Under the pieces are notes generated by a model. The model was not told the DNA's origin. It saw nothing but the letters and a program-made list of their open reading frames with translations, and did no database searches. This document shows positions 1,029 through 45,250 of a stretch of 64,000 nucleotides of DNA, in pieces. A program made the translations under genes and the position numbers. Origin of the DNA: Candidatus Magasanikiibacteriota bacterium (GTDB lineage Bacteria > Patescibacteriota > Patescibacteriia > Magasanikbacterales > UBA922); NCBI GenBank assembly GCA_052033375.1, contig JBPOJQ010000006.1:24791-88790 (forward strand), read 5' to 3'. Position 1 is the first letter of the stretch. The number at the start of each line of letters is the position of its first letter.

Positions 1029-1050
1029 GTATCTTTTAGTATATCACAAA

Positions 1051-2541
1051 TTAAGCAAGACGTGCCAGAGCTGCATTAATTCGATGGAGTGTTCGTTCTT
1101 TTCCCAAAACAGCAGCAATTTCGAATGGTCCTGGAGAATTTTTTTGTCCAGAAAGCGCAGTGCGCATAGGCCAAAGAATATCTCCTACACCAAAATTATT
1201 CGCAGTAATCCAGGCGAGTGTGTCTGTTTCGAGTTGCTCTTTCCCCCACTCATGTTCATTTTTTTGACTCAAATAATCCAACAATATGGCGAGCTTCTCA
1301 TGAGTAGCCTCTTTCGTGCTTTTTTTCCAGACCAACAATTCGGAATCATAGCTCAAAGTCTCAGCAAAAATAAACCCGAGTGCTTCGGGAAACTCTCGAA
1401 GTGTACTTGCTCTCCCCTTCTCAAGCTCAATAACTTTTGCCAAATCTGCCAACTCACTTTCAGACTGAGGCAATGCTTTGATAAGTCCATGATTGAGCAT
1501 AAATGGCGCAACACGTCGTGCGAGCTCAAGTCTATCCAGTGCTATCAGATACTGCTTGTTATACCAATTAAGTTTTTCTACGTTAAATACAGCAGCAGCC
1601 TTACTCACCGTGTCAAAATCAAATTCTTGCTCTAACTCTTTGATTGAGTATATTTCTTGTTCAGTACCAGGATTCCAGCCAAGAAATGCAACGAAATTAA
1701 TCAGTGCTTCAGGTAGATACCCTTTTTCTTTAAAATCACTTACGCTCACATCCCCATGTCGTTTACTTAGCTTCTGTTTCTGCTCATTAACCAAAAGTGA
1801 AAGATGCGCAAATTTGGGCGCTTCCCAACCAAACATTTTGTATAATTGAATATGTTTTGGAGTAGAAGGAAGCCATTCTTCAGAACGAGTTACATGAGTA
1901 ATTCCCATAGTATGATCATCGACGACCACGGCAAAATGGTATGTTGGAAAACCGTCTGCTTTAATAAGCACCTGATCATCAACTAATGCATTTTTGAACT
2001 CCACCCTACCTCGTATCAAATCTTCAATTATGGTCGTACCTTCTTTTGGCATTTTCATACGAACAACAAAAGTTTCCCCGCCATCAATTCTTTTTTGAGC
2101 CTCTTCTCTTGAGATGTTACGGCACGTACCATCGTACCCCGTTGGGAGTTTGTTTTTCTCCTGAGATGTACGCAATTCGGCCAATCGTTCTTTGGTACAA
2201 AAACAATAATAGGCATGCCCTGCATTCAAAAGTTCTGTAATGTATGTACGGTAAATTGACAGACGTTCTGACTGAACATATGGACCTAGGTTTCCTTTCT
2301 GTATGATATTTCCTTCTTCATCCATCGAAACTCCTTCGTCGATAGCAATACCAGCCCAGCGAAGTGAGGAAATCATATTTTCAGTTCCCCCCTCCACAAA
2401 TCGTTCACGATCAGTATCTTCAATTCGAAGTACAAAGGTGCCACCATGTTTTTTTGCAAATAAATAGCCAAATAGAGCGGTTCTGAGTCCACCCACATGG
2501 AGCATTCCTGTTGGACTTGGAGCAAAACGAGTTTTTACCAT
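1051..2541 (-). CDS. gltX: glutamyl-tRNA synthetase
   Basis: N-terminus is MVKTRFAPSPTGMLHVGGLRTALFGY...RIEDTD, the class I HIGH-type motif of GluRS. Length is 496 aa. Confidence 0.93.
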   Translation of the reverse strand: MVKTRFAPSPTGMLHVGGLRTALFGYLFAKKHGGTFVLRIEDTDRERFVEGGTENMISSLRWAGIAIDEGVSMDEEGNIIQKGNLGPYVQSERLSIYRTYITELLNAGHAYYCFCTKERLAELRTSQEKNKLPTGYDGTCRNISREEAQKRIDGGETFVVRMKMPKEGTTIIEDLIRGRVEFKNALVDDQVLIKADGFPTYHFAVVVDDHTMGITHVTRSEEWLPSTPKHIQLYKMFGWEAPKFAHLSLLVNEQKQKLSKRHGDVSVSDFKEKGYLPEALINFVAFLGWNPGTEQEIYSIKELEQEFDFDTVSKAAAVFNVEKLNWYNKQYLIALDRLELARRVAPFMLNHGLIKALPQSESELADLAKVIELEKGRASTLREFPEALGFIFAETLSYDSELLVWKKSTKEATHEKLAILLDYLSQKNEHEWGKEQLETDTLAWITANNFGVGDILWPMRTALSGQKNSPGPFEIAAVLGKERTLHRINAALARLA

Positions 2542-2543
2542 AT

Positions 2544-3305
2544 CTATGATATACGCGACATAACAATTGCCGCAGAGATTGCGATATTCAATGATTCAGC
2601 CTTTCCTTTACCTGGGATAGTATAGCGGACATCGACAATGTCTTCAAGATCTGGTGAAAGGCCTTGTGATTCAGATCCAAACAGAAAGACTGTATGTGTT
2701 GCCTTGGGAATTGATGTGGGAAGCACTTCACCTGAGAGATCAAGCGCAGAAACAGAATAGCCAAACGAATGAGTCAGTTCGGACAATTCTTTGAACAAAT
2801 TATGTGAACGATAAATCTTTGATCGGAACATCGATCCCATCGTGCTCCGAACCACTTTCGGATTATATTCATCTACGCTATTTTCTGAAAGTATAATATT
2901 CGTAATTCCAAACCACTCTGCAGTTCGAATAATTGTGCCCAGATTTCCCGGGTCTTTAATATTATCTAGTGCAATAATAGGACCTGTAGCGATATCTGTA
3001 AGTGTATGTTCAAAGGAATCAACTATTGCAATAATACCCGAAAACGTGTCAGTTGTTTTAATTTCTCCAATATCTTTTCTACCGCAATATTCGACTGGTA
3101 TATCTGCACTTTCTGCTTTTTTAATACACGCGGCAATATGCTCCTCATCTCGTCTGGTGCCTTCTACCACAACCATCGCAACTTCCGCATAGTCGAGTGC
3201 CTCCCCCACCCCCTTGAATCCTTCAACAATAAATTCCCGAAACTCACGTCGATATTTTTTTTCTTGTAATTGATTGAGGTGTTTAACGATTTTTGGTGAG
3301 AGCAT
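2544..3305 (-). CDS. SpoU/TrmH family RNA 2'-O-methyltransferase (RlmB-like)
   Basis: Shows the SPOUT methylase core: ALDNIKDPGNLGTIIRTAEWFG ... LFGSESQGLS ... GKGKAESLNIAISAAI. The ORF extends in frame to 3413. The hydrophobic 36-aa N-terminal extension looks spurious, so the start at MLSPKIV (3305) is preferred. Confidence 0.8.
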   Translation of the reverse strand: MLSPKIVKHLNQLQEKKYRREFREFIVEGFKGVGEALDYAEVAMVVVEGTRRDEEHIAACIKKAESADIPVEYCGRKDIGEIKTTDTFSGIIAIVDSFEHTLTDIATGPIIALDNIKDPGNLGTIIRTAEWFGITNIILSENSVDEYNPKVVRSTMGSMFRSKIYRSHNLFKELSELTHSFGYSVSALDLSGEVLPTSIPKATHTVFLFGSESQGLSPDLEDIVDVRYTIPGKGKAESLNIAISAAIVMSRIS

Positions 3306-3477
3306 AATAAGGAAAAATAATAGTAGCAGTGATAATTCGAGAGAACCGTTTAGGCTGAGTAATGAATCTATACAACCATTCAAAACCTGCTTTGCGTAGC
3401 CATGTTGGAGCACGTTTTATTGAACCAGAAATGTAGTCAACAGCGCCCCACACCCCCATTGCTATTTTGACCCCACG

Positions 3478-4035
3478 TTATTCATCTGCATGGGTATTAA
3501 TCCAAATCTCCTGTTTCTCATGTCCAAATGCTACAAAAATAATATCTGGTTTATTTCTCTGTATTTCATTGATAATTTGTTGATTAATGCGTTTCTCTTC
3601 TTTATTCTTATAGACAATCGCACCGCCCCGGACAAAAAAATTGGGTCCTGGATGCATGCCTGCGACATGCAGTGTCGGGAAGGCTTGCTGGATATAATAA
3701 AATAACTTCTTGAGAGTTTTTGTTTTTCCTGAACCAAGTAGAAAGATTGATTTTTGCTCATGTTCTGCGATAGAGAGAAGCTCAAGCATAAAATCAACCC
3801 CGGTAATCCTATTCAACCTGCCTTCTGAAAACAGGACTAGTCCCCTGCCATCACACAGTGATAGATCAGCAGTATTCAAGATTTCCCGAAATGAATGATG
3901 GCGATATGCGGATACAATCATCTCAGGATTTGGAGTAAAGATACGATGAAGTCGCTCCTCGTGAAGAAACGCCTGCGCTCTGTTTTTTGCCTCATCAATA
4001 GTGACTTCATCAACCTTTACATCGAGGATATGCAT
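3478..4035 (-). CDS. WecB/TagA/CpsF family glycosyltransferase (TagA-like)
   Basis: RIFTPNPEMIV ... LNTADLSLCDGRGLV are motifs typical of the WecG/TagA family. Length is 185 aa. Confidence 0.65.
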   Translation of the reverse strand: MHILDVKVDEVTIDEAKNRAQAFLHEERLHRIFTPNPEMIVSAYRHHSFREILNTADLSLCDGRGLVLFSEGRLNRITGVDFMLELLSIAEHEQKSIFLLGSGKTKTLKKLFYYIQQAFPTLHVAGMHPGPNFFVRGGAIVYKNKEEKRINQQIINEIQRNKPDIIFVAFGHEKQEIWINTHADE

Positions 4036-4075
4036 AGATCCTAAATCAGGGATAATTATGCTATACTAACATATA

Positions 4076-4104
4076 TTGACAGTTTTGGCGAGTGTGATAT
4101 AGTA
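4076..4104 (+). promoter_or_regulatory. sigma70-like promoter of clpB (TTGACA-16-TATAGT)
   Basis: TTGACA at 4076-4081 and TATAGT at 4098-4103, about 125 nt upstream of the clpB ATG. Confidence 0.45.
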
Positions 4105-4131
4105 TTATCACTCTACATCTACGAGTGCTAA
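4105..4131 (+). promoter_or_regulatory. CIRCE-like inverted repeat (HrcA operator) TTATCACTC-N9-GAGTGCTAA
   Basis: One mismatch to the consensus TTAGCACTC-N9-GAGTGCTAA. It lies immediately downstream of the predicted -10 of the heat-shock chaperone gene clpB. Confidence 0.55.
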
Positions 4132-4229
4132 TTCTATCTTAAAGTCCAGTGTCGAATAGTCGGATGTAGCCTACATTTTACATTAAAAATCAGATACAGT
4201 TAAAAACTGTATCTGATTCAACTTTTATT

Positions 4230-6869
4230 TTGTATATGATGCCTCAAAATTTTACCAACAAATCTCAAGAAGCAATTCAAAATGCACAAGGTATTGCGCA
4301 TGAAAATGGACAACAGCAAATAGATCCGCCACATTTGTTTCTGGCTCTGATCAACGAAGATGAGGGTGTTGTCGTATCAATTTTTAAAAAACTCAATGCT
4401 TCCGTCGATGTAATTAAGGAATTCCTACAGACACTAATTGATCGGATACCAAAACAGCCAATCAGTGCCCAAGGTATTGGACAAGTAACCCTCTCACAAG
4501 CGACACTCTATATACTACAAAACGCAAATAATGAAGCCCAAAAAATGAAGGATGAATTTATTTCAGTCGAGCATCTCCTCCTGGGATTTTTGACAAATAA
4601 AAACCCGATCAGTGATTTTCTGACACAGCAAGGCGTCACCTATCACGACATATTGAAGGTGCTCCAATCAATTCGTGGAAACCAGCGTGTTGACTCCCCT
4701 GAGCCTGAAAGCAAGTACCAGGCTCTAGAAAAATATGGGCTCAATCTCACCGAGCGAGCACGCAAAGAAAAACTCGATCCGGTGATTGGTCGTGACGATG
4801 AAATTCGCCGAGTCATGCAAGTGCTTACCCGACGAACCAAAAATAATCCAGTACTCATTGGTGAGCCGGGGGTAGGAAAAACAGCAGTGGTCGAAGGATT
4901 GGCGCAACGTATTGTAAATGGCGATGTACCAGAAAACCTCAAAGATAAGGAGGTCATTTCTCTGGATGTCGGTTCCCTACTCGCAGGTACCAAATTTCGG
5001 GGAGAATTTGAAGAACGTCTCAAGGCAGTAATCAAAGAAGTTACCAATAGTAATGGACAAATTGTTCTATTCATCGATGAACTTCATACAATCGTTGGTG
5101 CAGGTAGTTCAGACGGTGCAGTAGATGCATCAAATATGCTGAAGCCTGGGCTTGCTCGAGGTGAATTGCATATCATTGGTGCGACTACTATCAAGGAATA
5201 TCAAAAACATATTGAGAAAGACGCGGCTTTTGAACGGAGATTTCAAACTGTCATGGTCCACCAACCCACCCTCGATGATGCGACTGCGATTCTTCGTGGT
5301 ATTAAAGAAAAATATGAAATTCATCATGGGGTGCGAATTACTGACCCTGCAATTATAGCCGCAGTCACACTCTCGGATCGCTACATTAGTGATCGATTTC
5401 TTCCAGACAAAGCAATCGACCTCATTGACGAAGCCGCGAGTGCCCTCAAAATGCAGATTGACTCTATGCCTGATGATCTAGACAAAATGAAGCGCAAAAT
5501 GATGAAGATAGAAATCGAACTTCGGGCACTCAAAAAAGAAACTGACAAAGATTCAAAAGAACGTGAGAAATTGCTCAAAGAAGAATTAGCAAACCTCAAA
5601 GAAAAAAGTAAAGAAATCGAAATGCAGTGGGGTAATGAAAAAGAAATCATTACCAAAATGCGTGAACACAAAAAAGAAATTGATAAACTGAAACAGGAAG
5701 CTGAAATCATGGAACGTAAAGGTGATTTACAAAAAGTCGCTGAAATTAGATACGGAAAAATTCCAGTTATCGAAGAGGCAATCAAGAAGTACGAAGCAAA
5801 ACTTGCCGACCTGCAAAAGAAAAGTTCGATCCTCAAAGAAGAAGTCACTGAGGAGGATATTGCTCGAGTGGTATCGAAGTGGACTGGGATACCTGTAAGT
5901 AAAATGCTCGAAGATGAAGTCTTCAAGCTCGCCCGTATGGAACAGGAACTCAGTAAAAATGTAGTCGGACAAGAAGAAGCGATTGGCGCTGTCGCACATG
6001 CGATTCGTAGAAACCGGGCAGGAATTTCGGAAGAAAAGCGTCCAATCGGCTCTTTCATCTTCATGGGACCGACAGGTGTGGGAAAAACAGAGCTTGCAAA
6101 AACACTTGCTGAATTTCTGTTTAATGACCGTGAGGCGCTCGTGAGAGTAGACATGACAGAATATATGGAAAAACACGCGGTCAGCAAAATGGTCGGCTCT
6201 CCTCCAGGCTACATTGGGTTTGACGAGGGTGGACAACTCACCGAAATTGTACGTAGAAAACCATATTCAGTCATCCTATTTGATGAAATTGAGAAAGCCC
6301 ACCCAGACATATTCAATATCATGCTTCAAATTCTTGAGGATGGACATCTGACTGACGCCAAGGGTCGCAAAGTAAACTTCAAAAACACCGTTATTATCAT
6401 GACGAGTAATATCGCAAGTGAACTCATTGTACAGATGGGTACACAGGGAGAATTTGGTTTTGGTGAAAAGAAAAAAGGTGGAAATACAAAACAATCACAA
6501 GAAGCAATCAATAAACGAATTTTCGATGCACTTCGCGAACAATTCAAACCTGAGTTCCTCAATCGTATCGATGAAATCATTGTATTCCATCCATTGAAGG
6601 AAGAACAAATTCGTTCAATCGTCGATCTTCAGTTGGAAATTGTAATGAAGCGACTTGAAAAACAAAAAATAAAACTCGAGATCACTGACAAAGCAAAAGA
6701 TTGGCTCGCGAAAAAAGGTTATGATGAGAATCTCGGCGCTCGCCCGCTCAAGCGAGTAATACAGACAGAGTTATTGAATAAACTTGCGTTAAAAATCATT
6801 GAAAAAAGTGTAAGCGAGGGTGATACTGTGTATATTGACACAACTAAGGACGGATTAAAAATCAGTTAA
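4230..6869 (+). CDS. clpB: ATP-dependent chaperone ClpB (Hsp100, two AAA+ modules with middle coiled-coil domain)
   Basis: N-terminal Clp_N repeats. Two Walker A sites ([22 protein letters not shown]). A long middle coiled coil. [16 protein letters not shown] motif. Length is 879 aa. Confidence 0.95.
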
Positions 6870-7195: not shown

Positions 7196-8077
7196 TTATT
7201 TCAGTTCAATGGTACTGATGATATCTTCGAGATCGTCATAAGAATATCTGTAAAACTCATGGATTGAAAAAGTGTAGGTATATTTATCACCAAAAAATAC
7301 CAACTTATAATTTGTTCCTAAGCCTCCGTCGAAATATTCCAAAACAGTATGTGTATTTTTAGTGTTGTACAGAGATGGAATATTCACTAACTTAAAACCA
7401 TTTGAACTGCCACCAGAATTACGTGCTGATTCGGTTACATACATATCAACATCAGATCCGGTACTATTTCGTATGATAAGAGAAAAAGGACGTGTCAAAC
7501 GATAGCTCACACCTCCCTCAGGCATAGGATAGGTTATCCTACCAAATGAAACATAGGACGCACCCTTATCCCAAGAAACTTGTTCGTCAACGATATACGG
7601 CTCAAACTTATACAAAGGATCCCCCCACTTTTCATCGAATGGTAGACGCAATGATAATTCTTCATTTTCAAAAACAACAAACGTATTCGGAATTGACATG
7701 TTAACCTCTTGAGGAGGTGGAGGATTCGGTGTTTCAGGTTCAATATATTCTTCAGAAGAAAAAAATTTGCGTTCCGAATTGGAATAGACACCACTCCATT
7801 TACGTGTCATCCACCCATCATTTGATGGATCGTTTTTTCGAACTTCAGGAATCAAAACTTCATATTCTTTTTCTACCCTAACCTTAGGTTCTAATTTGGT
7901 CTCTTGCACAGGAGTTGGTTCAGACTTTTTTTCTTCCTGCTGAGAGAGAGTTGATTTTTGCATTGGTGCAGATTTGAACAAAAACTTATCCTGAAATATA
8001 AAAAAAGAAAGGATAACATTCAATCCAATACTGACGCAAAGTCCAATAGTCACAATATTTTTTCTGTCAAAAGTCAT
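7196..8077 (-). CDS. hypothetical membrane-anchored protein (N-terminal TM helix, Pro/Glu-rich linker)
   Basis: Long ORF with an N-terminal hydrophobic helix. No recognisable catalytic motif. Confidence 0.45.
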   Translation of the reverse strand: MTFDRKNIVTIGLCVSIGLNVILSFFIFQDKFLFKSAPMQKSTLSQQEEKKSEPTPVQETKLEPKVRVEKEYEVLIPEVRKNDPSNDGWMTRKWSGVYSNSERKFFSSEEYIEPETPNPPPPQEVNMSIPNTFVVFENEELSLRLPFDEKWGDPLYKFEPYIVDEQVSWDKGASYVSFGRITYPMPEGGVSYRLTRPFSLIIRNSTGSDVDMYVTESARNSGGSSNGFKLVNIPSLYNTKNTHTVLEYFDGGLGTNYKLVFFGDKYTYTFSIHEFYRYSYDDLEDIISTIELK

Positions 8078-8085
8078 AGTTATAG

Positions 8086-8388
8086 TTATAAATCACCTAA
8101 AAAATCATCATTCAAATCAAGTTGCCCAGGGGTAAACTTGTGGTATGGTTCACCGCTCCCCTGCTCAATCTTTTCTACCACATTTTCAGGAGTACTATAC
8201 GAGAAAATTTGATTGTCGTCAACGATGACGTTTACTGCTTTTTTACATCGATCAATACAGCCACATATGCCGACAGTAGTCTCTGTTCCTACATATTTTT
8301 CTTCCAACACACCGACAATAGCATGGGCGCCCTCTACCATGCAGTCCGCTCCACAACAGACTTCGATTTTTTTAATTTCTTTATTCAT
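8086..8388 (-). CDS. thioredoxin-like [2Fe-2S] ferredoxin family protein
   Basis: CCGADC ... CGCIDRC gives a Cx4C...Cx3C pattern typical of Trx-like 2Fe-2S ferredoxins. It sits at the distal end of the Fe-S assembly gene string. Confidence 0.45.
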   Translation of the reverse strand: MNKEIKKIEVCCGADCMVEGAHAIVGVLEEKYVGTETTVGICGCIDRCKKAVNVIVDDNQIFSYSTPENVVEKIEQGSGEPYHKFTPGQLDLNDDFLGDL

Positions 8389-8396
8389 ATTCAGTT

Positions 8397-8482
8397 GTCA
8401 TCCTGAGCGAAGCGAAGGATCCCTTAAAGAATGTTTGAAATAAAAATTTAGTCAAGGGATTCTTCGCTTCGCTCAGAATGAC
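8397..8482. repeat. near-perfect 29-bp inverted repeat pair (GTCATCCTGAGCGAAGCGAAGGATCCCTT / AAGGGATTCTTCGCTTCGCTCAGAATGAC) separated by a 28-nt AT-rich loop; member of a dispersed hairpin-repeat family
   Basis: Seen directly in the sequence. Related copies occur at 9163-9190 and 56115-56140. Confidence 0.7.
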
Positions 8483-8484
8483 AT

Positions 8485-8757
8485 TTATTCAGTATTTTGT
8501 TCGAATTTAGTCGCTAAGTCTTCCCAATGAGGATTTATAGAATTAATCAACTCCTCTTTTCTGATGCGCTTCCAACCTTTTATTTGTTTCTCCCTTCTTA
8601 TAGCTTCTTCAATATCACTAAATTGTTCAAAATAAACTAATTTAGTACAAGCATATTTCTTCGTAAAACTATCTGCGGCGCCTTGCTTGTGCTCATACAC
8701 CCTTCTCTGCAAGTTATTCGTCACCCCGATATACAGTGTTCCAGAATAACTTGCCAT
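8485..8757 (-). CDS. GIY-YIG nuclease family protein (COG2827/UPF0213-like)
   Basis: MASYSGTLYIGVTNNLQRRVYEHK matches the GIY-YIG motif. Length is about 90 aa. The start is taken at MASYSG; the ORF extends in frame to 8787. Confidence 0.85.
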   Translation of the reverse strand: MASYSGTLYIGVTNNLQRRVYEHKQGAADSFTKKYACTKLVYFEQFSDIEEAIRREKQIKGWKRIRKEELINSINPHWEDLATKFEQNTE

Positions 8758-8790
8758 AATATAAATGTAAAAATTATTCCGCAACATATT

Positions 8791-9087
8791 CTAGACGCCC
8801 ATCGCAGCCCGTAAATCTGGAGGTGCTACCCAAGGCGGATCAAAGGTAACATCAATGTAAACCGCTTCACGCTCGAAACCAAACGACATAATTACTTCCC
8901 GTATCTCATCAGTGAGTTGCGGACCGAAGGGACAAAATGGTGTGGTGTAAGTCATGGTTACTTCAACTCTATTCTGTTCACTATCCACACGAATATCATA
9001 AATAAGGCCCATAGTAACCACATCTACATGGACTTCAGGATCAAAGACCGTCTTTAATTTTTCTAAAATTTGCTCTTTGGTGACCAT
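8791..9087 (-). CDS. sufT: Fe-S cluster assembly protein SufT (DUF59/MIP18 family)
   Basis: VFDPEVHVDVVTMGLIY ... TYTTPFCPFG is the DUF59 signature. It is adjacent to sufC. Confidence 0.8.
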   Translation of the reverse strand: MVTKEQILEKLKTVFDPEVHVDVVTMGLIYDIRVDSEQNRVEVTMTYTTPFCPFGPQLTDEIREVIMSFGFEREAVYIDVTFDPPWVAPPDLRAAMGV

Positions 9088-9162
9088 ACATTATTTATTT
9101 TGTTATCCTGAACGTATTGAGTGATCCCGTGAAGAGTGTTATACGTAAAACCCTCTTTAAGA

Positions 9163-9190
9163 GATTCTTCGCCTACGGCTCAGAATGACA
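9163..9190. repeat. solo copy of the TGTCATTCTGAG...GAAGAATC hairpin-repeat family
   Basis: GATTCTTCGCCTACGGCTCAGAATGACA is the reverse complement of a GTCATTCTGAGCCGTAGGCGAAGAATC-type unit. Confidence 0.5.
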
Positions 9191-9196
9191 AATACA

Positions 9197-9925
9197 CTAT
9201 TTAAAATTATTATACCCACTCTTCTCGACTTCATGTGCCAATTCAGGACCACCACTCTTCACAATATTACCATCAATCATGATGTGAACTACGTCCGGCA
9301 CCACGTAATCAAGAATACGATTGTAGTGGGTAATCAATAGTACTCCAGTTTTCTCACTCTTAAATTTAACAATTCCTTCCGCAACGATTTTCAACGCATC
9401 CACATCAAGCCCGGAATCAGTCTCATCAAGTACCGCATATGTCGGCTCAAGAACCGCAAGCTGGAGAATCTCAGCTCGTTTCTTCTCTCCTCCAGAAAAT
9501 CCCGTATTCACATATCGAGTCGCAAATGCTGGATCCATTCCAAACTCTTTTATTTTTTCTACCAACTTTCGGTGAAACTCAAGAGGATTCACCGTAGCAC
9601 CTTTGAGCGAATTATACGCGAGACGCAAAAAATTAGAAATCGTCACCCCTTCAATTTCTGGCGGATACTGCATCGAGAGAAACAATCCATGCTTTGCTTT
9701 CTCATCTGTAGACATATCGGTCACGTCCACAGCGTCAACAATAATCTTCCCCTCAGTGACGGTATATTTTGGATGACTAAGTAGTGTATTTGCAAGGGTG
9801 GATTTCCCCGAACCATTCGGTCCCATAATCGCATGGACTTCACCTGGCTTAATCTCAAGATTAAGACCTTTTACAATCGGCTTTTCTTCTACTGAAACGT
9901 GTAGGTTTTGTATCTGTAAGCTCAT
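9197..9925 (-). CDS. sufC: Fe-S cluster assembly ATPase SufC
   Basis: MSLQIQNLHVSV...GPNGSGKSTL, plus ABC signature and Walker B. The start is taken at MSLQ; the ORF extends to 9985. Confidence 0.9.
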   Translation of the reverse strand: MSLQIQNLHVSVEEKPIVKGLNLEIKPGEVHAIMGPNGSGKSTLANTLLSHPKYTVTEGKIIVDAVDVTDMSTDEKAKHGLFLSMQYPPEIEGVTISNFLRLAYNSLKGATVNPLEFHRKLVEKIKEFGMDPAFATRYVNTGFSGGEKKRAEILQLAVLEPTYAVLDETDSGLDVDALKIVAEGIVKFKSEKTGVLLITHYNRILDYVVPDVVHIMIDGNIVKSGGPELAHEVEKSGYNNFK

Positions 9926-9932
9926 AATATAT

Positions 9933-10304
9933 TTATATAAGTGATTCTTGAGATGCTCTGAAGACAAGTAACGCACATTTTTCACGATTAATCCCTACAT
10001 CAATTCCAAGTAAATTGAGTACTTCAGCATCAGTTATTTTCTCAACCTCATCCAAACTTTTTCCTTTAATATACTCAGTAAATAATGATGCAGAGGCTTG
10101 CGAAATAGCGCATCCAGCACCTTCAAATCCGATATCAATAATTTTCTCTCCATCAGTTTTTACATAAACCGTTAATTCATCACCACACGTCGGATTATTC
10201 TTGTGCGCAGTATGTGTTGCATCCAAAACTTTCTTCTTATTCTTCGGATTGCGATACAGATCCAGAATATACTCTTTGTAAATTGTTTCCATTTCATGAT
10301 CCAT
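9933..10304 (-). CDS. sufU: SufU/IscU-type Fe-S cluster scaffold (NifU N-terminal domain)
   Basis: PTCGDELTVYV ... GAGCAISQASASL ... conserved cysteines. It is 4 nt from the sufS stop. Confidence 0.8.
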   Translation of the reverse strand: MDHEMETIYKEYILDLYRNPKNKKKVLDATHTAHKNNPTCGDELTVYVKTDGEKIIDIGFEGAGCAISQASASLFTEYIKGKSLDEVEKITDAEVLNLLGIDVGINREKCALLVFRASQESLI

Positions 10305-10305
10305 A

Positions 10306-11508
10306 TTATTTCTGAAATACATTAACCAAATCAGAGAGTGCAATATCCAGTCGCTGAATATCTTCTTCATTCGTATACAGGCCAATTGAAACGCGTGCAG
10401 TTCCCTGTGGCATACCCAACACGTTTACAAGCGGCATCGTACAGTGATGACCAGCACGAATCGCAATATTTTTTTCATTCAAAAATCCGGCGATATCATG
10501 TGGATGAATCCCTTCAATTGCAAACGATACAACTCCAATTCTTTTACCCAACTCATTCGTACCGATTATTTTTCCATATTTTGATACAACCTCAACAAGC
10601 TCTTTAGTTAAATTTTTCTCATGCTCTACAACAACATCCCAATCAATACCAGTAATGAATTTCAAAGCAGCTCCAAGTCCAATCACACCTGCAATATTCG
10701 GCGTACCCGCTTCAAACCTACGAGGAATTTCTGCCCACGTGGTTTTTTCATAACTAACCGTATCAATCATGTCTCCACCAAAACTTGCAGGGCTCAGCTT
10801 TTCCAATGCAGTAGTCTTGCCATAGACAATTCCAATGCCAGTTGGCCCATACATTTTGTGTCCTGAACATACCAAGAAATCACAATCCAATTTTTTCACA
10901 TCAATCTGTATGTGAGACACAGACTGTGCAGCATCAACAATGACGAATGCACCGACTCCATGAGCAAGTTTTGTAATCTTTTCAATCGGTAAAATAGTCC
11001 CAAGCGTATTTGATACATGTGCAACGCTCACGATTTTTACCCGCTTATCAAAATATTTTTCCAAATCAGCGTCTAGTTCAAATGTTTCGTTATTTACAGA
11101 CATAAATTGCAACTGGGCTCCAGTTCGTTTTGCAAGTTCTTGCCAAGGAATCAGATTTGCATGATGTTCAAATTCGGTCAACAAAATTACATCGTCTTTT
11201 GAAATGAGATGCTCAAGTCCATATGCAAGCTTATTGATCCCATCCGTAGTGCCTGAAGTAAAAAATATTTCTTTTTCTTCAGCGCCAAAAAATTGAGCCG
11301 TTTGTTTTCGAACTCCCTCATACATTTCACTCGCCTTTTCACTATCAGAATACACACCGCGATGAATATTTGATCGATACTGTGTATAATATTTGTTCAT
11401 TGCATCAAGGACACTATCTGGCGTAAGCGAACTTGCGGCGCTATCAAAATACACGTAGTCAGGACGGTTTTTGAGAATGTTAAATTGTGGGCGTATCTTT
11501 TCATTCAT
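10306..11508 (-). CDS. sufS: cysteine desulfurase SufS (class V aminotransferase)
   Basis: 400 aa. Lys in the SGHKMYGPTG motif (PLP site). C-terminal HHCTMPL with the catalytic Cys. Confidence 0.9.
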   Translation of the reverse strand: MNEKIRPQFNILKNRPDYVYFDSAASSLTPDSVLDAMNKYYTQYRSNIHRGVYSDSEKASEMYEGVRKQTAQFFGAEEKEIFFTSGTTDGINKLAYGLEHLISKDDVILLTEFEHHANLIPWQELAKRTGAQLQFMSVNNETFELDADLEKYFDKRVKIVSVAHVSNTLGTILPIEKITKLAHGVGAFVIVDAAQSVSHIQIDVKKLDCDFLVCSGHKMYGPTGIGIVYGKTTALEKLSPASFGGDMIDTVSYEKTTWAEIPRRFEAGTPNIAGVIGLGAALKFITGIDWDVVVEHEKNLTKELVEVVSKYGKIIGTNELGKRIGVVSFAIEGIHPHDIAGFLNEKNIAIRAGHHCTMPLVNVLGMPQGTARVSIGLYTNEEDIQRLDIALSDLVNVFQK

Positions 11509-37311: not shown

Positions 37312-38895
37312 ATGGCACTCTACCACAAACACCGACCGCAGACCTTTGATACTATTATTCATCAGGAACACATCACGACCACTCTGAAGAATGAAATCAC
37401 CGGAGGCATGGTAGCTCACGCATATCTTTTTTCTGGTCCGCATGGCGTAGGAAAGACAACAACTGCCCGTATTTTAGCGAAATCTTTGAACTGTAAAAAT
37501 CGAAAGTCTGATGAGCCAAATCCATGTGATCAGTGCGACTCATGCAAAGACATCTCGAATGCGCGATCAATTGATGTCATAGAAATTGACGCAGCCAGTC
37601 AGACAGGTGTCGATAATGTGCGAGAAAATATTATTGAAAATGCACAATTCAAACCTACACTTGGAAAATACAAAATTTTCATCGTAGATGAGGTGCACAT
37701 GTTGTCCACAGCTGCATTTAATGCACTCCTAAAAACACTTGAGGAGCCACCAGAACATGTCGTATTCATTCTTGCAACGACTGATGCACAAAAACTTCCA
37801 GCAACAGTAGTATCACGATGTCAGAGATTCACGTTCTCACGAATTCCTGATGAAACCACCAAAAAACATCTTCAATCAATCGCGAAAGAGGAAGGGGTAA
37901 CTATTGATGAGGTCGTGCTTGATGCAATTGTACGCAAAGCTCGTGGAGGCGCACGCGATGCAGTGAGCCTGCTCGATCAATTAATCGCAACCGGGGAAAA
38001 GCATCTTACGGCACAGGCAGCTTCACATATCATGCCAACTACATCAAATGAATCCCAAATCAGGTTTCTCTCACATCTAATCGAAAAAAATGCTATCGCA
38101 ACACTCGGTGACATTGAAATATTGAGTGAACAAGGAACACATCCGTATTTTTTCATGGAAGAAATCGTACAAATGCTCAGATTACTCCTAATCACATCGA
38201 TTGATGAAAAATTGGCAAAAAAAGAATCGTATCTTCCAGAAAGTGATATAGCAACATTACAATCACTCACCACACACATATCAAAACGCGATATCGTACG
38301 CCTGACAGACAGAACAATCGCTCGAATGCAGGAAGTGAAATCATCACTCCTCCCCTACCTCCCCCTTGAGCTTCTTGCTGTCGAGTGGTCTGCAGACGAA
38401 GAAGATGTCACTCCTCCTCCCAGCCGCCCTGTGGCAACGGCGCCCGCTGTAGTGGTGCCAAAACAACAACCCACTACTCCACAATCCCAGACATCAGTAT
38501 CGTCGCCCACAAGCAGAGAAGAGAAAAAGAGTGATATACCTCACACAGACAATCTGCCTCCTGCACCAGCAGACGCTGATTTATCCCAAGTAAAGAAAGC
38601 GTGGAATTCGCTCATCACTGAAATCGAAAAAACTACGCCATCGCTTATATTCATACTCAAAAACGCGATATTACTCTCATCAACACACGGAGTACTCAAA
38701 TTGAAGGTCGCCTATAGTTTTCATCAAGATAAAATCATGCAGGTAGCCACCCGAAAAAAAATAGAAGACCATCTCGCAACCATACTCGGATTCAGATTGT
38801 CACTCGAAGTAGAAATAGATGAAATGATGCAACAAAAAAATGCAGCCTCAGATCTCAATGATCTCGCGACAGCATTGGGCGGTAGTATTATTTAA
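37312..38895 (+). CDS. dnaX: DNA polymerase III subunit gamma/tau
   Basis: YLFSGPHGVGKTTTARILAKSLNC ... zinc module CDQCDSC ... sensor motifs. Length is 527 aa. Confidence 0.9.
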   Translation: MALYHKHRPQTFDTIIHQEHITTTLKNEITGGMVAHAYLFSGPHGVGKTTTARILAKSLNCKNRKSDEPNPCDQCDSCKDISNARSIDVIEIDAASQTGVDNVRENIIENAQFKPTLGKYKIFIVDEVHMLSTAAFNALLKTLEEPPEHVVFILATTDAQKLPATVVSRCQRFTFSRIPDETTKKHLQSIAKEEGVTIDEVVLDAIVRKARGGARDAVSLLDQLIATGEKHLTAQAASHIMPTTSNESQIRFLSHLIEKNAIATLGDIEILSEQGTHPYFFMEEIVQMLRLLLITSIDEKLAKKESYLPESDIATLQSLTTHISKRDIVRLTDRTIARMQEVKSSLLPYLPLELLAVEWSADEEDVTPPPSRPVATAPAVVVPKQQPTTPQSQTSVSSPTSREEKKSDIPHTDNLPPAPADADLSQVKKAWNSLITEIEKTTPSLIFILKNAILLSSTHGVLKLKVAYSFHQDKIMQVATRKKIEDHLATILGFRLSLEVEIDEMMQQKNAASDLNDLATALGGSII

Positions 38896-40019: not shown

Positions 40020-40090
40020 TCGGGGATCGTCTAATGGTAGGACTACAGGTTCTGGACCTGTGTATCGGGGTTCGAATCCCTGTCCCCGAG
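40020..40090 (+). tRNA. tRNA-Gln (anticodon CUG)
   Basis: Manual fold. Acceptor TCGGGGA/TCCCCGA. D-arm GTCT-AATGGTA-GGAC. Anticodon stem ACAGG/CCTGT with loop TTCTGGA (CTG at positions 34-36). T-arm CGGGG-TTCGAAT-CCCTG. Discriminator G. CCA not encoded. Confidence 0.85.
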
Positions 40091-40098
40091 CTAAAAAA

Positions 40099-40130
40099 AG
40101 AATATCGCCAATTGGATATATTCTTTTTTT
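40099..40130 (+). terminator. intrinsic terminator after tRNA-Gln (GAATAT...ATATTC + T7)
   Basis: Seen in the sequence. Confidence 0.55.
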
Positions 40131-40142
40131 AAGTCAGAGATA

Positions 40143-40261
40143 AAGAGGGATTCGAACGAGGGAAGGGTGAAACCGTGAGGTTTCACTGGACTGAGGAAAG
40201 TACACGAAAACCCGAAGGTTTTCGTGATATGTTCGAATAGCGAAGCGCCCTGTCCCCGAGC
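40143..40261 (+). repeat. tRNA-Gln 3'-end-derived element 1: starts with an inverted copy of the tRNA T-arm/3' region (GAGGGATTCGAAC) and ends with a direct copy of the tRNA 3' end (CCCTGTCCCCGAGC); internal perfect hairpins
   Basis: Direct comparison with tRNA positions 40072-40093. Internal hairpins GTGAAACC-gtgag-GGTTTCAC and CACGAAAACC-cgaa-GGTTTTCGTG. Confidence 0.6.
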
Positions 40262-40306
40262 AAAATATAAATACACCCATATAGGTGTATTTATATTTAT
40301 GATAGT

Positions 40307-40407
40307 GAGAGGGATTCGAAGGACGCGAGAGAAGCCGAGCGTGCGAGGCTTCGGTGCGCAGCGCCCCGGTACCCGAACGGAGTGAGGGGGAATCCCTGTC
40401 CCCGAGC
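40307..40407 (+). repeat. tRNA-Gln 3'-end-derived element 2: same architecture (GAGAGGGATTCGAA ... GGGGGAATCCCTGTCCCCGAGC)
   Basis: 21-nt match to the tRNA 3' end with the TTCG of the T-loop deleted. Internal hairpin GAAGCC-gagcgtgcgag-GGCTTC. Confidence 0.6.
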
Positions 40408-40418
40408 TAGTGACAGTA

Positions 40419-40763
40419 TTAATCTTTGGCGCGACGATAAATGACACCAGTGATAATCGAAGCAATTAATGCAAAGGTTATTAGTACAGTAATCCAATTT
40501 TGAGTAACCAAATACCAGATGAGTGTTGCAAACATTTTGCAAAATCCATACACAAATTGTATGGCCACATTCAGACTTTCATAGATGATGTTAAAAATAG
40601 GAATTTGTATCATTCCTGTACTATTATTAACAATAACAAAACAGCTAATACTGATAATAGCTAATAGCGCTATAATTATCCATTCAATTTTGTGCTTTTT
40701 TGAGACCATATTATCATAAAAGACGGCGTAGCCATCTCTATATTTGTGTAGTTTTGCGACCAT
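40419..40763 (-). CDS. small hypothetical membrane protein (3 TM) at the edge of the AT-rich island
   Basis: 114 aa, hydrophobic. AT-rich composition like the island. Confidence 0.4.
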   Translation of the reverse strand: MVAKLHKYRDGYAVFYDNMVSKKHKIEWIIIALLAIISISCFVIVNNSTGMIQIPIFNIIYESLNVAIQFVYGFCKMFATLIWYLVTQNWITVLITFALIASIITGVIYRRAKD

Positions 40764-40880: not shown

Positions 40881-42884
40881 ATGTATCTATCGCAACTTAT
40901 AGTAAGAAATTATAGATCAATAAAACAGTTAAATATTAATTTTGAAAAAGGAAAAAATATTATTGTTGGAAAAAATAACGCAGGAAAATCCAATATAATA
41001 AAGGCAATAGATCTTATACTTGGAGACACAAGTCCTACATACGAAAAGTTAGAAAATATAACTGATAATGATTTTTTCGGCGGTGACACTTCAAAAAACA
41101 TTTTAATTTTTGCAAAATTAAATCGTGAAGCAAAAGAACCTCTTAATTATGAGGAACTATACAAGTGCTATGGTTTTTATAGAGATACTAACCAGGTGAA
41201 TTTACCTGAAAATAATCCAGATATATTTTCTAGACATTTAGCTGTTTTATTTAAAACTAATCCTGAAGACTTGGAACGCGCAAGAAAAAAATATATTAAT
41301 CCAAAATTAAAAAATCAACGGACCTTTGAAAATGAATTTGATAACAAACATGAATTCGGCCTAGTATTTTATGCTCATAAAGATGATCACGGCAGAATTA
41401 ACAAAGAAATGAGATTTATATATAGAGAAGGATCTGGTCAAAATTGGGTGGTCGCTTTTTCGGCAGCAGCAAGGAATGGATTATTACAAAGCGCAATAAT
41501 TCCTTCTTTTAGGGATCCTCAGAATCAATTAAGAATAAGTAGTTGGAGTTGGTATGGAAAATTATTAAAAAGCGTGGTCGATCCTAATAATAAAAATTTA
41601 CAAAAAGCATTTCAAGAGGTTAAAATTGCATCTGAAGATGTTTTTTCTCAGCTTGAAACTAAAATTAATAATAGTAAAGTTAAAGTTGCTTTTCCAAATA
41701 CTAAAATTTCCTTTCAATTTAATCCAGACACTAAGCAGGACATTCATAAGAGTGCATTGGTTTATGTTGACGATGGTTTTAAGAGTCAATTACAAGATAA
41801 AGGATCGGGAATACAAAGTGCCGTGATAATAGGATTATTTGATTTTTATACACGAGAGATTGCACATCAAGGAAATTCATTGCTGGCAGTTGAAGAACCA
41901 GAACTCTATTTACATCCTCATGGACGAAGAGTGCTCTCTAACAGATTAGACGATTTTTTAGATGGGAATAAAAATCAAGTTATTATTACTACCCATTCAC
42001 CTGAATTTATTAGTACAGCAAATGATAGGTTTAATATAGTAGTGGCTTGTAAAAATGAAGAAGGAAAGACAGAGGCAAAAAATGTTAATTTTAGTAATGC
42101 TAAAGAAAGACAAATTTTAATAAAAAATCAAAATGCTGAAATGTTTTTTGCTGATTGTGTAATTTTGGTTGAAGGCGGAGGTGATAAATATATTCTTGAA
42201 ATGGTGGCTAAAAAATTTGGTGAAGAAAAAAATATAGGATCAAATTGGTTAAATGATAATAACATCTCTGTTATTCCTGTAATTGGAAAATCCGAATTTT
42301 ATAAATATGCTAAAAAATTAAAAGAAGCGAATATTGATTGTTATATTTTTGCAGATTTTGATTATCTTTGTTCAAAATTAGCAGAATGTTTAACCGAACT
42401 CGATTATAAAGAATTAAAAAATGATCATAACACTGTTAATGGTAAGATTAAAAAGATTCCAAATGAAAAATGTGAGGCGTGTAAACAAAATATTAAAGCA
42501 CAATCTTACCCTAAGAGAATAGATGAATTAACAGATAAAGCCCTAAAGACAGAGGTGGAATCTTTTATTGCAAAACTATCAGATAGTAAAATTTATATTT
42601 GTGCCGATGAATTAGAAGATCGTTATAGAGACAAAAACTTAATTAAAGGTATCAGTGGTAAAGAAGAAGCAGCTTTACATATAGTGGGGCATATTTTAGA
42701 AACTAATAAAGATATTAATGACCTTATTGAGTTAAAAGATTTTTGGAATATTTTTGATAAAATATTAGAACATAAAAAAATACCACCTAAAACACAAAAT
42801 AGCTCAGAAAAGAAAGTCCCCACAGACTTACCTAATGATCTTGATAGTAACTTAGAATTAGAATCAAATGAGAACATTTTTTAA
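40881..42884 (+). CDS. OLD-family ATP-dependent endonuclease: N-terminal ABC-type ATPase + C-terminal TOPRIM domain (GajA / P2 Old / AriAB-like)
   Basis: Walker A GKNNAGKSN. Walker B/D-loop LLAVEEPELYLHPHGRRVL. H-loop VIITTHSPEF. TOPRIM with CVILVEGGGDKYILE (catalytic Glu) and IFADFDYL (DxD). Length is 667 aa. First gene of a tight three-gene operon. Confidence 0.8.
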   Translation: MYLSQLIVRNYRSIKQLNINFEKGKNIIVGKNNAGKSNIIKAIDLILGDTSPTYEKLENITDNDFFGGDTSKNILIFAKLNREAKEPLNYEELYKCYGFYRDTNQVNLPENNPDIFSRHLAVLFKTNPEDLERARKKYINPKLKNQRTFENEFDNKHEFGLVFYAHKDDHGRINKEMRFIYREGSGQNWVVAFSAAARNGLLQSAIIPSFRDPQNQLRISSWSWYGKLLKSVVDPNNKNLQKAFQEVKIASEDVFSQLETKINNSKVKVAFPNTKISFQFNPDTKQDIHKSALVYVDDGFKSQLQDKGSGIQSAVIIGLFDFYTREIAHQGNSLLAVEEPELYLHPHGRRVLSNRLDDFLDGNKNQVIITTHSPEFISTANDRFNIVVACKNEEGKTEAKNVNFSNAKERQILIKNQNAEMFFADCVILVEGGGDKYILEMVAKKFGEEKNIGSNWLNDNNISVIPVIGKSEFYKYAKKLKEANIDCYIFADFDYLCSKLAECLTELDYKELKNDHNTVNGKIKKIPNEKCEACKQNIKAQSYPKRIDELTDKALKTEVESFIAKLSDSKIYICADELEDRYRDKNLIKGISGKEEAALHIVGHILETNKDINDLIELKDFWNIFDKILEHKKIPPKTQNSSEKKVPTDLPNDLDSNLELESNENIF

Positions 42885-42896
42885 GATTTTCATAAA

Positions 42897-44360
42897 ATGG
42901 AAAGCAATAGATTTTTTCAAAAACTAAGTGAAGTATCTCCATTAGTAAACAATTACGCGTTTAATTTTTTTGAAATATCCAAGTATGGGAGTTTTAAAGA
43001 ATCACTTGAGAAAGTAAATCATAAAGATTTCATAAGTAAATGTTACGAAGGTTTTAAAATCGCTCAGGATAAATTAATCGAAAATATTTTGGAGATTGAA
43101 TCAGAAATTGAGAAAATAAAAAGCGAAATCAATGAATATGAAAGAGGTAAAAAGAAATCATCTTTAAAAGATGATTCTCATTATTTAGGAATGAATCGAC
43201 AAAAAAATGACCTAATTTTTCAAAGAGCTTCTTTTAGAGAATTAGCCAATGTTATTGTCTGGACAATTTTTTTAGAACAAAGAACAGATATTAAGAGTTT
43301 TATAAAATTAAGTAACAGTGATGGATATTTAAAAGACAGAGATATTGAAAATTGCATAAAGGTTGCAAGACAAATAAATAATGATAGTAATACTTTTGCT
43401 CTAATTACTGACATTACCTCTACTCTTCATGTTGGAGACCTGATTGTAGTGGAAGAAGGTAAAATATCTGTAACTGAAGTTAAAAGAGATACTAAGATAA
43501 ATAATTTAATATCAAATATTGTTGAATATCCAAAAGATCCTAAAGATACAAAAATTTTTCTTGAAGAACTCATACAAACTTATGGTGTTAAGGGTGTTAA
43601 GCAGCTTCAAAGAAACATGCGTCAAATGATAAGAATGCATAATATTAAAGAGTACATTGAAAAAGATGAAGTTTTTGATTTTGATTTAAATCAAAAGAAA
43701 TATGCTTTTGAGGTTTCAACTCCGGATATAGATTTCATGAAATTCTTAGAAATGGCATTAGATGAGTTTTACAAACATGAAAGAAAAATGTTTGTTTTTC
43801 CTACAGACTGTTGTTTCGTAGGAATTGTAAGAAAAAATGGAGAAAAATCAGAAATAGCTTTTAAATTGGATTTTAAACATGACATATATCATAGACTATT
43901 TAAAAATTGGGACGAATGCGCGTTTAGTAATAAAGATAAGCCAGGATTTACAAAAGAAAATATTCCAGAAATGTTTTTATATCATAAGTTGGATATATAT
44001 TCTTTTAAAGACAAAGTATTTTTTCCGGCACAGCGGCCACTTTTTTTGAGTCTGAAACAGGAATATGTAATTGACTTGTTGACTGACAAGATTGCTATCT
44101 ATATTTATTTTGATCCAGATCGTCTAATAGAAATGGCTAAAGAAAGAAAATTAAAAATGGAATTTGTAAAAAAGACCTCGAAAATAAAAGATCATCCTTA
44201 TAAAAATGAATTTCCTTTTTTCGAAAAGGGTTATATGCAGGTAAGTAATAAGGAAACAAAACTAATAATAGGCTATGGAATTATATTGAGAATAGTTTAT
44301 GAATTGCAGTCTGGATATAATTTGATTGAACATTTAAAAGAAGACCTTAAAAAGATTTAG
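42897..44360 (+). CDS. 487-aa protein of unknown function, second gene of the OLD-family operon; possible PD-(D/E)xK-type core (LHVGDLIVVEEGKISVTEVK)
   Basis: 12-bp gap to the upstream gene. No P-loop or helicase motifs, so not a GajB/UvrD-type partner. GD...EVK spacing is compatible with a restriction-endonuclease-like fold. This is an inference only. Confidence 0.45.
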   Translation: MESNRFFQKLSEVSPLVNNYAFNFFEISKYGSFKESLEKVNHKDFISKCYEGFKIAQDKLIENILEIESEIEKIKSEINEYERGKKKSSLKDDSHYLGMNRQKNDLIFQRASFRELANVIVWTIFLEQRTDIKSFIKLSNSDGYLKDRDIENCIKVARQINNDSNTFALITDITSTLHVGDLIVVEEGKISVTEVKRDTKINNLISNIVEYPKDPKDTKIFLEELIQTYGVKGVKQLQRNMRQMIRMHNIKEYIEKDEVFDFDLNQKKYAFEVSTPDIDFMKFLEMALDEFYKHERKMFVFPTDCCFVGIVRKNGEKSEIAFKLDFKHDIYHRLFKNWDECAFSNKDKPGFTKENIPEMFLYHKLDIYSFKDKVFFPAQRPLFLSLKQEYVIDLLTDKIAIYIYFDPDRLIEMAKERKLKMEFVKKTSKIKDHPYKNEFPFFEKGYMQVSNKETKLIIGYGIILRIVYELQSGYNLIEHLKEDLKKI

Positions 44361-44366
44361 TTTATA

Positions 44367-45149
44367 GTGTTTACTATGAATTTTGATATAGAAGTTTTTA
44401 ATAAAAAAACTCAAGATTTTATTAAAGAAATAGAGCAAGAATTTGGTCATGAGATTAGAGTTGAATACATTGATTTAGAAGAAGGGCATAGTGGTTTTTG
44501 TAATGTCGATGAAACGGGTACACCAACTGTAACATTAAATTCCAATGAAAAAGATGCTGAGAAAATAAAACATTTTTTAATTCATGAAACTTATCATCTT
44601 AGATTACTATTAAATAAGTTTCCAATGTTTGCTTCTGTGGGAAATGCGCAGGTAGTCTATGTGCCAGAGTACTATAAATATATAAGTAACAATTTTTGGG
44701 ATAAAATTGTGCATTCATATTTTTATCCTAAAATAAAAAATGAACTAGATCATGATCCGTATAAACATTTCGAACCAGATTTTAATTTGATTAAAAATAG
44801 TTTATTGGAAAAGAAATTTAGTGAGAACTCAGATGACGTAAAAAAAATGCGAATAATCGGTTGGTATCACCAAATTTGGGCCGAAGGGAAAAAAGAGGAT
44901 CTATTAGAGTATGAGAGTTTAGTTAAGGAGTATCATAATAGTCTCGGTTTAAAAGAGAGCGAAAAAATGATTAAAATATTTGAAAAAAGAGATATTAAAA
45001 ATTCTAAGGATCTGATCGATATTTTCATTGAATTTTTTAATGCTATACACGAGGATAGAGAAATAATTTTAGTAAGTGAAGAGGTTAAATTGAGAGGGAG
45101 TTTTGAATTGCAGGTCGCATATTTTACTGTTTATAAGCTGGATAAATAA
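44367..45149 (+). CDS. HExxH zinc metallopeptidase-like protein (ImmA/IrrE/M78-like motif HETYH), third gene of the operon
   Basis: LIHETYHLRLL motif. 6-bp gap to the upstream gene. Length is 260 aa. Confidence 0.45.
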   Translation: MFTMNFDIEVFNKKTQDFIKEIEQEFGHEIRVEYIDLEEGHSGFCNVDETGTPTVTLNSNEKDAEKIKHFLIHETYHLRLLLNKFPMFASVGNAQVVYVPEYYKYISNNFWDKIVHSYFYPKIKNELDHDPYKHFEPDFNLIKNSLLEKKFSENSDDVKKMRIIGWYHQIWAEGKKEDLLEYESLVKEYHNSLGLKESEKMIKIFEKRDIKNSKDLIDIFIEFFNAIHEDREIILVSEEVKLRGSFELQVAYFTVYKLDK

Positions 45150-45250
45150 GTTCCTATTTCATCCCACAGCCAGAGCTAATAAAAAATACCCTATCCACGG
45201 GTATTTTGTTTTTACATTATCATGATATACTATATGCCTAATTTTAGTAT

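Follow-up and report, generated by a model that had tools for sequence, protein, structure and literature searches.

The stretch of DNA analysed here, the window, spans 64,000 nt of a Candidatus Magasanikiibacteriota genome (contig JBPOJQ010000006.1, positions 24,791 to 88,790 of the forward strand). Three genes are arranged in tandem on its forward strand: a gene encoding an OLD-family ATPase-nuclease of 667 aa, recognised by Pfam and PADLOC models (40881-42884), an open reading frame (ORF) of 487 aa starting with ATG, here called X (42897-44360), and an orphan ORF of 260 aa, here called Y (44367-45149). X is the middle gene, 12 nt from OLD and 6 nt from Y. A hairpin with 9 stem pairs (45183-45207), followed by the T-run GTTTTT (the whole element spanning 45183-45217), is located 3' of Y, and is the sole strong terminator-like structure of the unit, as scanning between OLD, X and Y revealed no comparable site. 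Because of the short spacers and of the single terminator-like hairpin after Y, the three genes look like one transcription unit. An earlier analysis made without database searches (the sequence-only reading) had called X the second gene of an operon, and this is confirmed. The X protein quite probably has a PD-(D/E)xK nuclease core. It belongs to a real, sizeable family which has no entry in Pfam, NCBIfam, PADLOC or PHROGs.

Sequence and predicted structure of X

Walker and helicase/ATPase motifs had been reported as missing from X, and indeed no Walker A/P-loop was found by regular expression, and no match was obtained with ATPase and helicase family models, including UvrD, AAA and GajB. The protein, which also lacks superfamily 1 (SF1) motifs, was on these grounds rejected as a GajB/UvrD-like helicase.

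The sequence-only reading had proposed a (G/P)D-x14-ExK motif. The segment that it quoted corresponds to X residues 168-198, and the key residues are there, but the spacing was miscounted: the motif is G-D181-x12-E194-x-K196, with 12 residues between D181 and E194. Conservation was monitored by aligning 48 diverse members of the X family, some of which are 14-20% identical to the window protein. Six columns only are invariant in all 48, and these are D172 (codon at 43410-12), D181 (43437-39), E194 (43476-78), K196 (43482-84), R239 (43611-13) and Q243 (43623-25). G180, G199, N202 and Q236 are conserved in at least 90% of the members, and D261 in 42 of the 48. Identity to the window protein has a median of 30% in the region 147-261, and drops to 21% in the N-terminal, 15% in the middle and 19% in the C-terminal region, a pattern which fits a conserved catalytic core joined to diversifying accessory domains.

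The fold was modelled by AlphaFold2 (AF2), a check that had been suggested along with the nuclease hypothesis. The full-length model (predicted local distance difference test, pLDDT, 83.6; predicted template modelling score, pTM, 0.84) shows a central alpha/beta core; pLDDT was 87.8 in a second model, and the secondary structure of the core was assigned by DSSP on both. The predicted N-terminal domain (residues 1-133, 42897-43295) is helical, features a long antiparallel hairpin made by helices 42-82 and 94-124, and carries the conserved motif KC(H/Y)EGFKxAQ. It is followed by the predicted PD-(D/E)xK core (residues 147-261, 43335-43679), in which helix 150-160, strands 166-170, 182-186 and 189-193, helices 200-256 and strand 258-261 succeed one another. 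In the models this is the alpha-beta-beta-beta-alpha-beta core of the PD-(D/E)xK superfamily. D181 directly precedes strand 182-186, and E194-V-K196 is located at the end of strand 189-193; as modelled, the placement of D181 and E194-x-K196 is canonical for the superfamily. The predicted topology and the invariant residues thus sustain the nuclease core that the sequence-only reading had regarded as possible. The remaining alpha/beta regions (residues 262-487, 43680-44357) vary more than any other part of the family; no fold could be assigned to them, and no counterpart of the domain order of X (helical hairpin, core, alpha/beta) was found among solved structures.

Alignment by hhalign of the X family to the sequences of Hjc deposited in PDB produced one weak match (33-40 columns, pairwise E 0.03-0.05). 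The match is in exact register, since FALI is aligned to FAVV, G-D181 to P-D42, and E194-x-K196 to E55-x-K57, which we take to be catalytic residues of Hjc. The real score was 18.7, and control alignments with shuffled columns scored 11.3 +/- 2.1; the real value was reached by 3 of 400 shuffles.

Spread of the X family

X was used to search Pfam, PADLOC-DB 2.0, NCBIfam, PHROGs v4 and PDB sequences, and no match was found in any of these libraries. The family profile similarly retrieved nothing meaningful from PDB sequences. No consistent family match was obtained when the 48 aligned members were compared to Pfam, PADLOC and PHROGs: none matched a Pfam nuclease family or a PHROGs entry, and the sole PADLOC match was to one stray Type I specificity subunit.

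A word-indexed search with X retrieved 9 clusters only, all matching over the full length and 29-40% identical; the sole named source was Candidatus Veblenbacteria, a bacterium of the Candidate Phyla Radiation (CPR). A second indexed homology search added 3 further proteins. An exhaustive profile search, with clustering at 50% identity, identified 727 clusters; E was <= 1e-10 for 512 of these, and the proteins are mostly 440-530 aa long. The hosts are CPR bacteria, Bacteroidota and Proteobacteria, and genome scans extended the family to Saccharibacteria, Paceibacterota and Bacteroidota. All named members, found in Dysgonomonas, Bradyrhizobium and one metagenome-assembled genome (MAG) of Pseudomonadota, are annotated as hypothetical proteins. 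Viral sequences in IMG/VR yielded four loci, all from a distant clade of the family, and no matches to X of the close clade. No matches were found by tblastn of X and of the distant member P0161 against a phage collection, or of P0061 against a plasmid collection. Neither the X family nor an accessory nuclease for Gabija or OLD was found described in the papers searched.

In three members of 669-690 aa (P0073, P0101 and P0113) the X architecture is preceded by a conserved stretch of about 215 aa, which starts with GILAYGSL(I/V)DDPG. The extension matched nothing in Pfam or PDB sequences, and the fusion is a dead end as a clue to function.

Genomic contexts of X homologues

Twenty-four distinct contexts have been compared, 14 from a close clade, in which X proteins are 27-61% identical to each other, and 10 from a distant clade. 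In the window the order is OLD, X, Y. At L007 a PIF1 gene is followed by true GajA (4e-140) and GajB (2e-91) genes, and X overlaps the GajB stop codon. A UvrD-type helicase gene lies directly upstream of X at L015 (Saccharibacteria MAG, 8026-11479), where the two genes overlap, and at L016/L020 (L016 is from a Paceibacterota MAG, 561-4254); OLD is missing from both. At L011 X adjoins a gene for an OLD of Class 1 type (1.6e-51), but the two are convergent and therefore cannot be co-transcribed. X follows genes for a helix-turn-helix protein, Mod and a Type III Res (2e-92) at L005, is accompanied by a UvrD gene, a BanI restriction-modification (R-M) system and an integrase gene at L008, and is divergent from an N6/N4 methyltransferase gene at L001/L019. 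No recognisable partner was found at L010, L012, L017/L027, L021, L022 and L023.

In none of the 10 distant contexts is OLD present. A long, weakly UvrD-like protein is encoded two genes upstream of the X homologue at L036, the sole distant context of this kind. Other distant neighbours include genes for acyl-CoA dehydrogenase, glycosyltransferases, RteC, a Strawberry-notch-like helicase, Fic and integrases. In the distant clade two members are morons, located in structural modules of prophages: one (L039, 7869-9248) is inserted between genes for Mu-F (PF04233) and a Mu-like protease I (PF10123), the other (L040, 7827-9257) between capsid/head genes and a tape-measure gene (PF10145).

OLD and/or UvrD genes thus flank X in 5 of the 14 close contexts, and in practically no distant context. 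This adjacency is far above chance, because Class 1 OLD is present in about 0.45% of genomes only (PMC12392090). OLD itself belongs to the X unit, or adjoins it, in three close contexts (in tandem in the window, via GajB at L007, convergent at L011), and the OLD proteins involved are of different types, and 25-27% identical to each other. The helicases at L015 and L016 are 67% identical, and the X proteins encoded downstream are 34% identical; the X proteins at L008 and L011 are 61% identical, and their neighbours are unrelated. These mismatches suggest modular shuffling. The first may result either from a mobile helicase associated to a faster-diversifying X, or from the swapping of X alleles behind the same helicase.

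The sequence-only reading had envisaged X as a partner defining a new OLD class. OLD classes are defined by conserved neighbourhoods (PMC10568477, PMC12796447), and X falls short of this standard because its association with OLD is enriched, but not conserved across contexts. There is no conserved OLD-X partnership, the view of X as a dedicated partner of OLD finds no support, and the proposal was not borne out.

OLD, Y and the surrounding island

The OLD protein of the window matches the Pfam models AAA_15 (1.7e-42) and OLD-like_TOPRIM (1.1e-14). Its best PADLOC model is Old, of the P2 type (1.7e-52), which scores ahead of the GajA models. The Walker A motif is intact (GKNNAGKS, residues 30-37). 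By sequence comparison the OLD type that the protein most resembles is P2 Old (Class 1). The best-scoring stretch of the match to the Old model stops near residue 582, and a charged C-terminal tail of about 85 aa is left beyond it (residues 583-667, 42620-42884).

Y carries an HExxH motif (H73-E-T-Y-H77, 44583-44597), and translation may alternatively start at the ATG at 44376. No match to Y was found in the family libraries, Pfam included, and in a search of 5.8 billion proteins the sole match was Y itself. No relative was found when Y was compared by BLAST and phmmer to all neighbours of X homologues, and Y was ruled out as a conserved partner of X. Having no match other than itself, and no relative near X homologues, Y cannot define a system. 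The surroundings of the HExxH motif resemble those of ImmA/IrrE (M78) metallopeptidases by eye only, a likeness that no model backs.

The three genes are hosted by an island of 5 kb, with a GC content of 0.27-0.32, to be compared with about 0.41-0.44 on both flanks. At its left border is a tRNA-Gln (CTG) gene (40020-40091, forward strand), identified by ARAGORN and by the Rfam tRNA model (57.8 bits), and the GC content drops from about 0.43 to 0.27-0.37 directly at the right of this gene, which is likely the integration target of the island. The 3' terminal 20-mer of the tRNA, GAATCCCTGTCCCCGAGCTA, is found in two exact copies, the second of which (40390-40409) is located 316 bp downstream; two copies were found in 0 of 100 shuffles. 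A degenerate copy is located at 40244-40263, and the attachment (att)-like region spans 40074-40409 on the forward strand. A search for an attR site detected no copy of the 20-mer where the island ends on the right. A second short repeat, AGAGGGATTCGAAC/GGA, is found at 40144 and 40308, and gives rise to two units in tandem, about 150-170 bp long and with GC-rich hairpins. The tandem units, which matched no family in Rfam, resemble remnants left by several rounds of integration at the tRNA, of which the recurring 20-mer is a signature. On the reverse strand, the interval separating OLD from the last att-like repeat holds an ORF of 114 aa (40419-40763), with hydrophobic stretches and no family match, which may be a genuine gene and may belong to the island.

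A dnaX-like gene, encoding DNA polymerase III gamma/tau, is found at 37312-38895, and the X island begins about 1-2 kb downstream. The X-bearing island of L005 similarly begins about 1-2 kb downstream of a dnaX-like gene (493-1635). This could be either a coincidence or a shared insertion hotspot in small genomes.

Possible functions of X

The explanation that we favour, and to which we give about an even chance, is that X is an autonomous metal-dependent PD-(D/E)xK nuclease, carried as cargo by mobile elements, and most likely devoted to defence against, or exclusion of, foreign DNA. The location of X genes in tRNA-linked islets, their proximity to integrase and R-M genes and their presence in prophage moron slots speak for a defence or exclusion gene that acts on its own. 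The family, made of proteins of about 450-530 aa, may well move as self-sufficient cargo of integrative elements, defence islands and prophages. It is plausible that X reached the window together with the Class-1-type OLD and Y genes, in one low-GC islet. In the mechanism proposed, D181, E194 and K196, set on the beta2-beta3 hairpin, would bind Mg2+ together with D172, and cut the phosphodiester bond. R239 and Q243, set on the long helix that follows beta3, would line the active site. The N-terminal helical hairpin and the long helix would form a stalk, probably used for oligomerisation, as in dimeric Hjc-type enzymes, and the fast-evolving middle and C-terminal regions would choose or gate the substrate. 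X would act alone on foreign DNA, as a solitary Type IV-like or abortive-infection nuclease does. In the window it would be co-expressed with OLD, and the effects of the two may be additive, with no dependence of X on OLD. Two observations weigh against this explanation. No acidic residue is conserved in at least 70% of the 48 members in helix 147-161, and the Glu found in the first helix of Hjc is unmatched; D172 may substitute for it. Moreover, the frequency of OLD and UvrD next to X in the close clade (five of 14 contexts), set against the rarity of Class 1 OLD in genomes, argues for a functional partnership.

A true partner of Gabija-type machines, that is, an effector or sensor nuclease of the CPR clade plugging interchangeably into OLD and/or UvrD, is the alternative that this excess supports, and we consider it unlikely. 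The window would represent a new OLD context, made by OLD, a PD-(D/E)xK nuclease and possibly Y, and the helicase and X genes of L015 and L016 would form a pair similar to Gabija, with X in the place of GajA. The compactness of the OLD-X-Y unit, served by one terminator, argues for this alternative, and so do the overlaps of X with the GajB stop codon and with UvrD at L007 and L015, the recurrence of the UvrD-X order at L016/L020, and the second Class-1-type OLD abutting X at L011. Helicases more conserved than the adjacent X proteins, as at L015 and L016, are what would be expected of a conserved motor coupled to a diversifying effector. However, nine of the 14 close contexts do not fit the scheme; in the 10 distant contexts OLD is missing throughout, and a UvrD-type gene is found in one only. 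The convergent orientation at L011, the divergence and different types of the OLD proteins adjoining X, and the unrelated neighbourhoods of the most similar X proteins are also at odds with it. Moreover, Class 1 OLD and Gabija each defend without a third gene (PMC10568477, PMC12392090), and defence genes gather in islands without interacting. A mixed scheme, in which X founds a modular effector family of stalked PD-(D/E)xK nucleases, able to work by themselves and, in CPR bacteria, to dock onto DNA sensors that are driven by ATP and interchangeable, and the window hosts a three-gene OLD system so far unrecognised, is to our judgement similarly doubtful. It is just as doubtful that the sensors are Class-1-type OLD, the Gabija GajAB pair and lone UvrD helicases, possibly along with Type III Res.

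A function unrelated to immunity appears quite improbable. X would in this case be a structure-specific nuclease, resolving junctions, flaps or forks in the recombination, repair or replication of the carrier elements. This is suggested by the fact that the most compact structural matches of X are Hje and Hjc, which feature the same D-x12-ExK spacing, and by the recurrence of neighbours acting on DNA, such as UvrD, PIF1, OLD, serine and tyrosine recombinases and an RNase H-like protein. There is also a very slim probability that X is not a nuclease, the invariant D, D, E, K, R and Q residues serving other chemistry or binding, and the likeness to PD-(D/E)xK enzymes being superficial. Slimmer still is the probability that X is the endonuclease of a conventional R-M system, the host being guarded by a neighbouring methyltransferase. 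N6/N4 methyltransferase genes are found near X at L001/L019 (divergent), L005 (Mod-Res) and L015 (a ParB_N-methyltransferase, divergent), and a C5 methyltransferase gene at L008. Nevertheless, these are 4 of the 24 contexts, most contexts have no methyltransferase gene, and the window island has none. In addition, the methyltransferases of L005 and L008 have nucleases of their own, the Type III Res and BanI, respectively. A cognate methyltransferase gene consistently adjacent, as is the rule for Type II endonucleases, does not accompany X.

We regard X as a new family and architecture inside an enzyme superfamily that is already known, put to a familiar use. A restriction-fold nuclease on mobile DNA is unsurprising in itself, and the reading of the locus as a new OLD class is weakly supported. 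If X is an active nuclease, the PD-(D/E)xK superfamily gains a family of about 700 clusters, the domain layout of which is unmatched among solved structures. The slots occupied by its members (islets, sites beside integrases, phage morons) make the family a concrete candidate, testable at low cost, for a new defence or exclusion system made by one gene. Such a system would be especially interesting in CPR bacteria, as little is known of their immune repertoire. The recurrent, non-obligate linkage to OLD and UvrD provides a test case to tell functional coupling from co-residence in defence islands, and is relevant to whether any Class 1 OLD works with accessory proteins, which is an open question (PMC10568477). 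Should docking onto sensors be true, OLD, the nuclease and the HExxH protein would make a sixth OLD neighbourhood class, and UvrD-X would be an analogue of Gabija, with a restriction-fold nuclease in place of the Toprim nuclease.

Comparison with known systems

Defence genes encoding a nuclease plus a motor, or a solitary nuclease, have been compared with X, namely Hachiman HamA/HamB, Shedu SduA, Hna and Type IV enzymes of the Mrr and McrBC type. The 48 X-family members differ from them in having no consistent PADLOC model or Pfam nuclease family.

The closest structural relatives of X appear to be Hjc and Hje (PDB 1hh1, 1gef, 2wcw, 1ob8), archaeal Holliday-junction resolvases which are minimal PD-(D/E)xK nucleases. 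These are about 120-145 aa long; X, at 487 aa, has in addition the N-terminal helical hairpin, a helix of 42 residues after beta3 and the C-terminal alpha/beta region. X lacks the invariant Glu of the first helix, and features D172, R239 and Q243 as family-specific invariants. Hjc and Hje are core repair genes of archaea, whereas X is cargo of bacterial mobile elements. The Pfam Hjc model does not match X, and membership in the Hjc/Hje family was rejected because of size, extra domains, missing helix-1 Glu and absence of this match.

Gabija, or Class 2 OLD, is made by the OLD nuclease GajA and the UvrD-like helicase GajB, and in its canonical form has two genes (PMC10568477). X homologues directly follow the GajA-GajB pair at L007 and a lone UvrD-type helicase at L015 and L016, and in the window X is located downstream of OLD, in the slot that is occupied by GajB in Gabija. 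In contrast to GajB, X has no helicase or ATPase motifs, and UvrD is missing from the window island. The locus was rejected as a Gabija system, since the island hosts OLD, X and Y and no helicase, and the OLD protein is best matched by the Old, not the GajA, model. Class 1 OLD proteins (P2 Old, Ts OLD, Vc OLD) are of the same type as the OLD protein of the window, and are likewise found in variable, horizontally acquired neighbourhoods. They are encoded by stand-alone genes and work alone, whereas the OLD gene of the window appears to be co-transcribed with X and Y.
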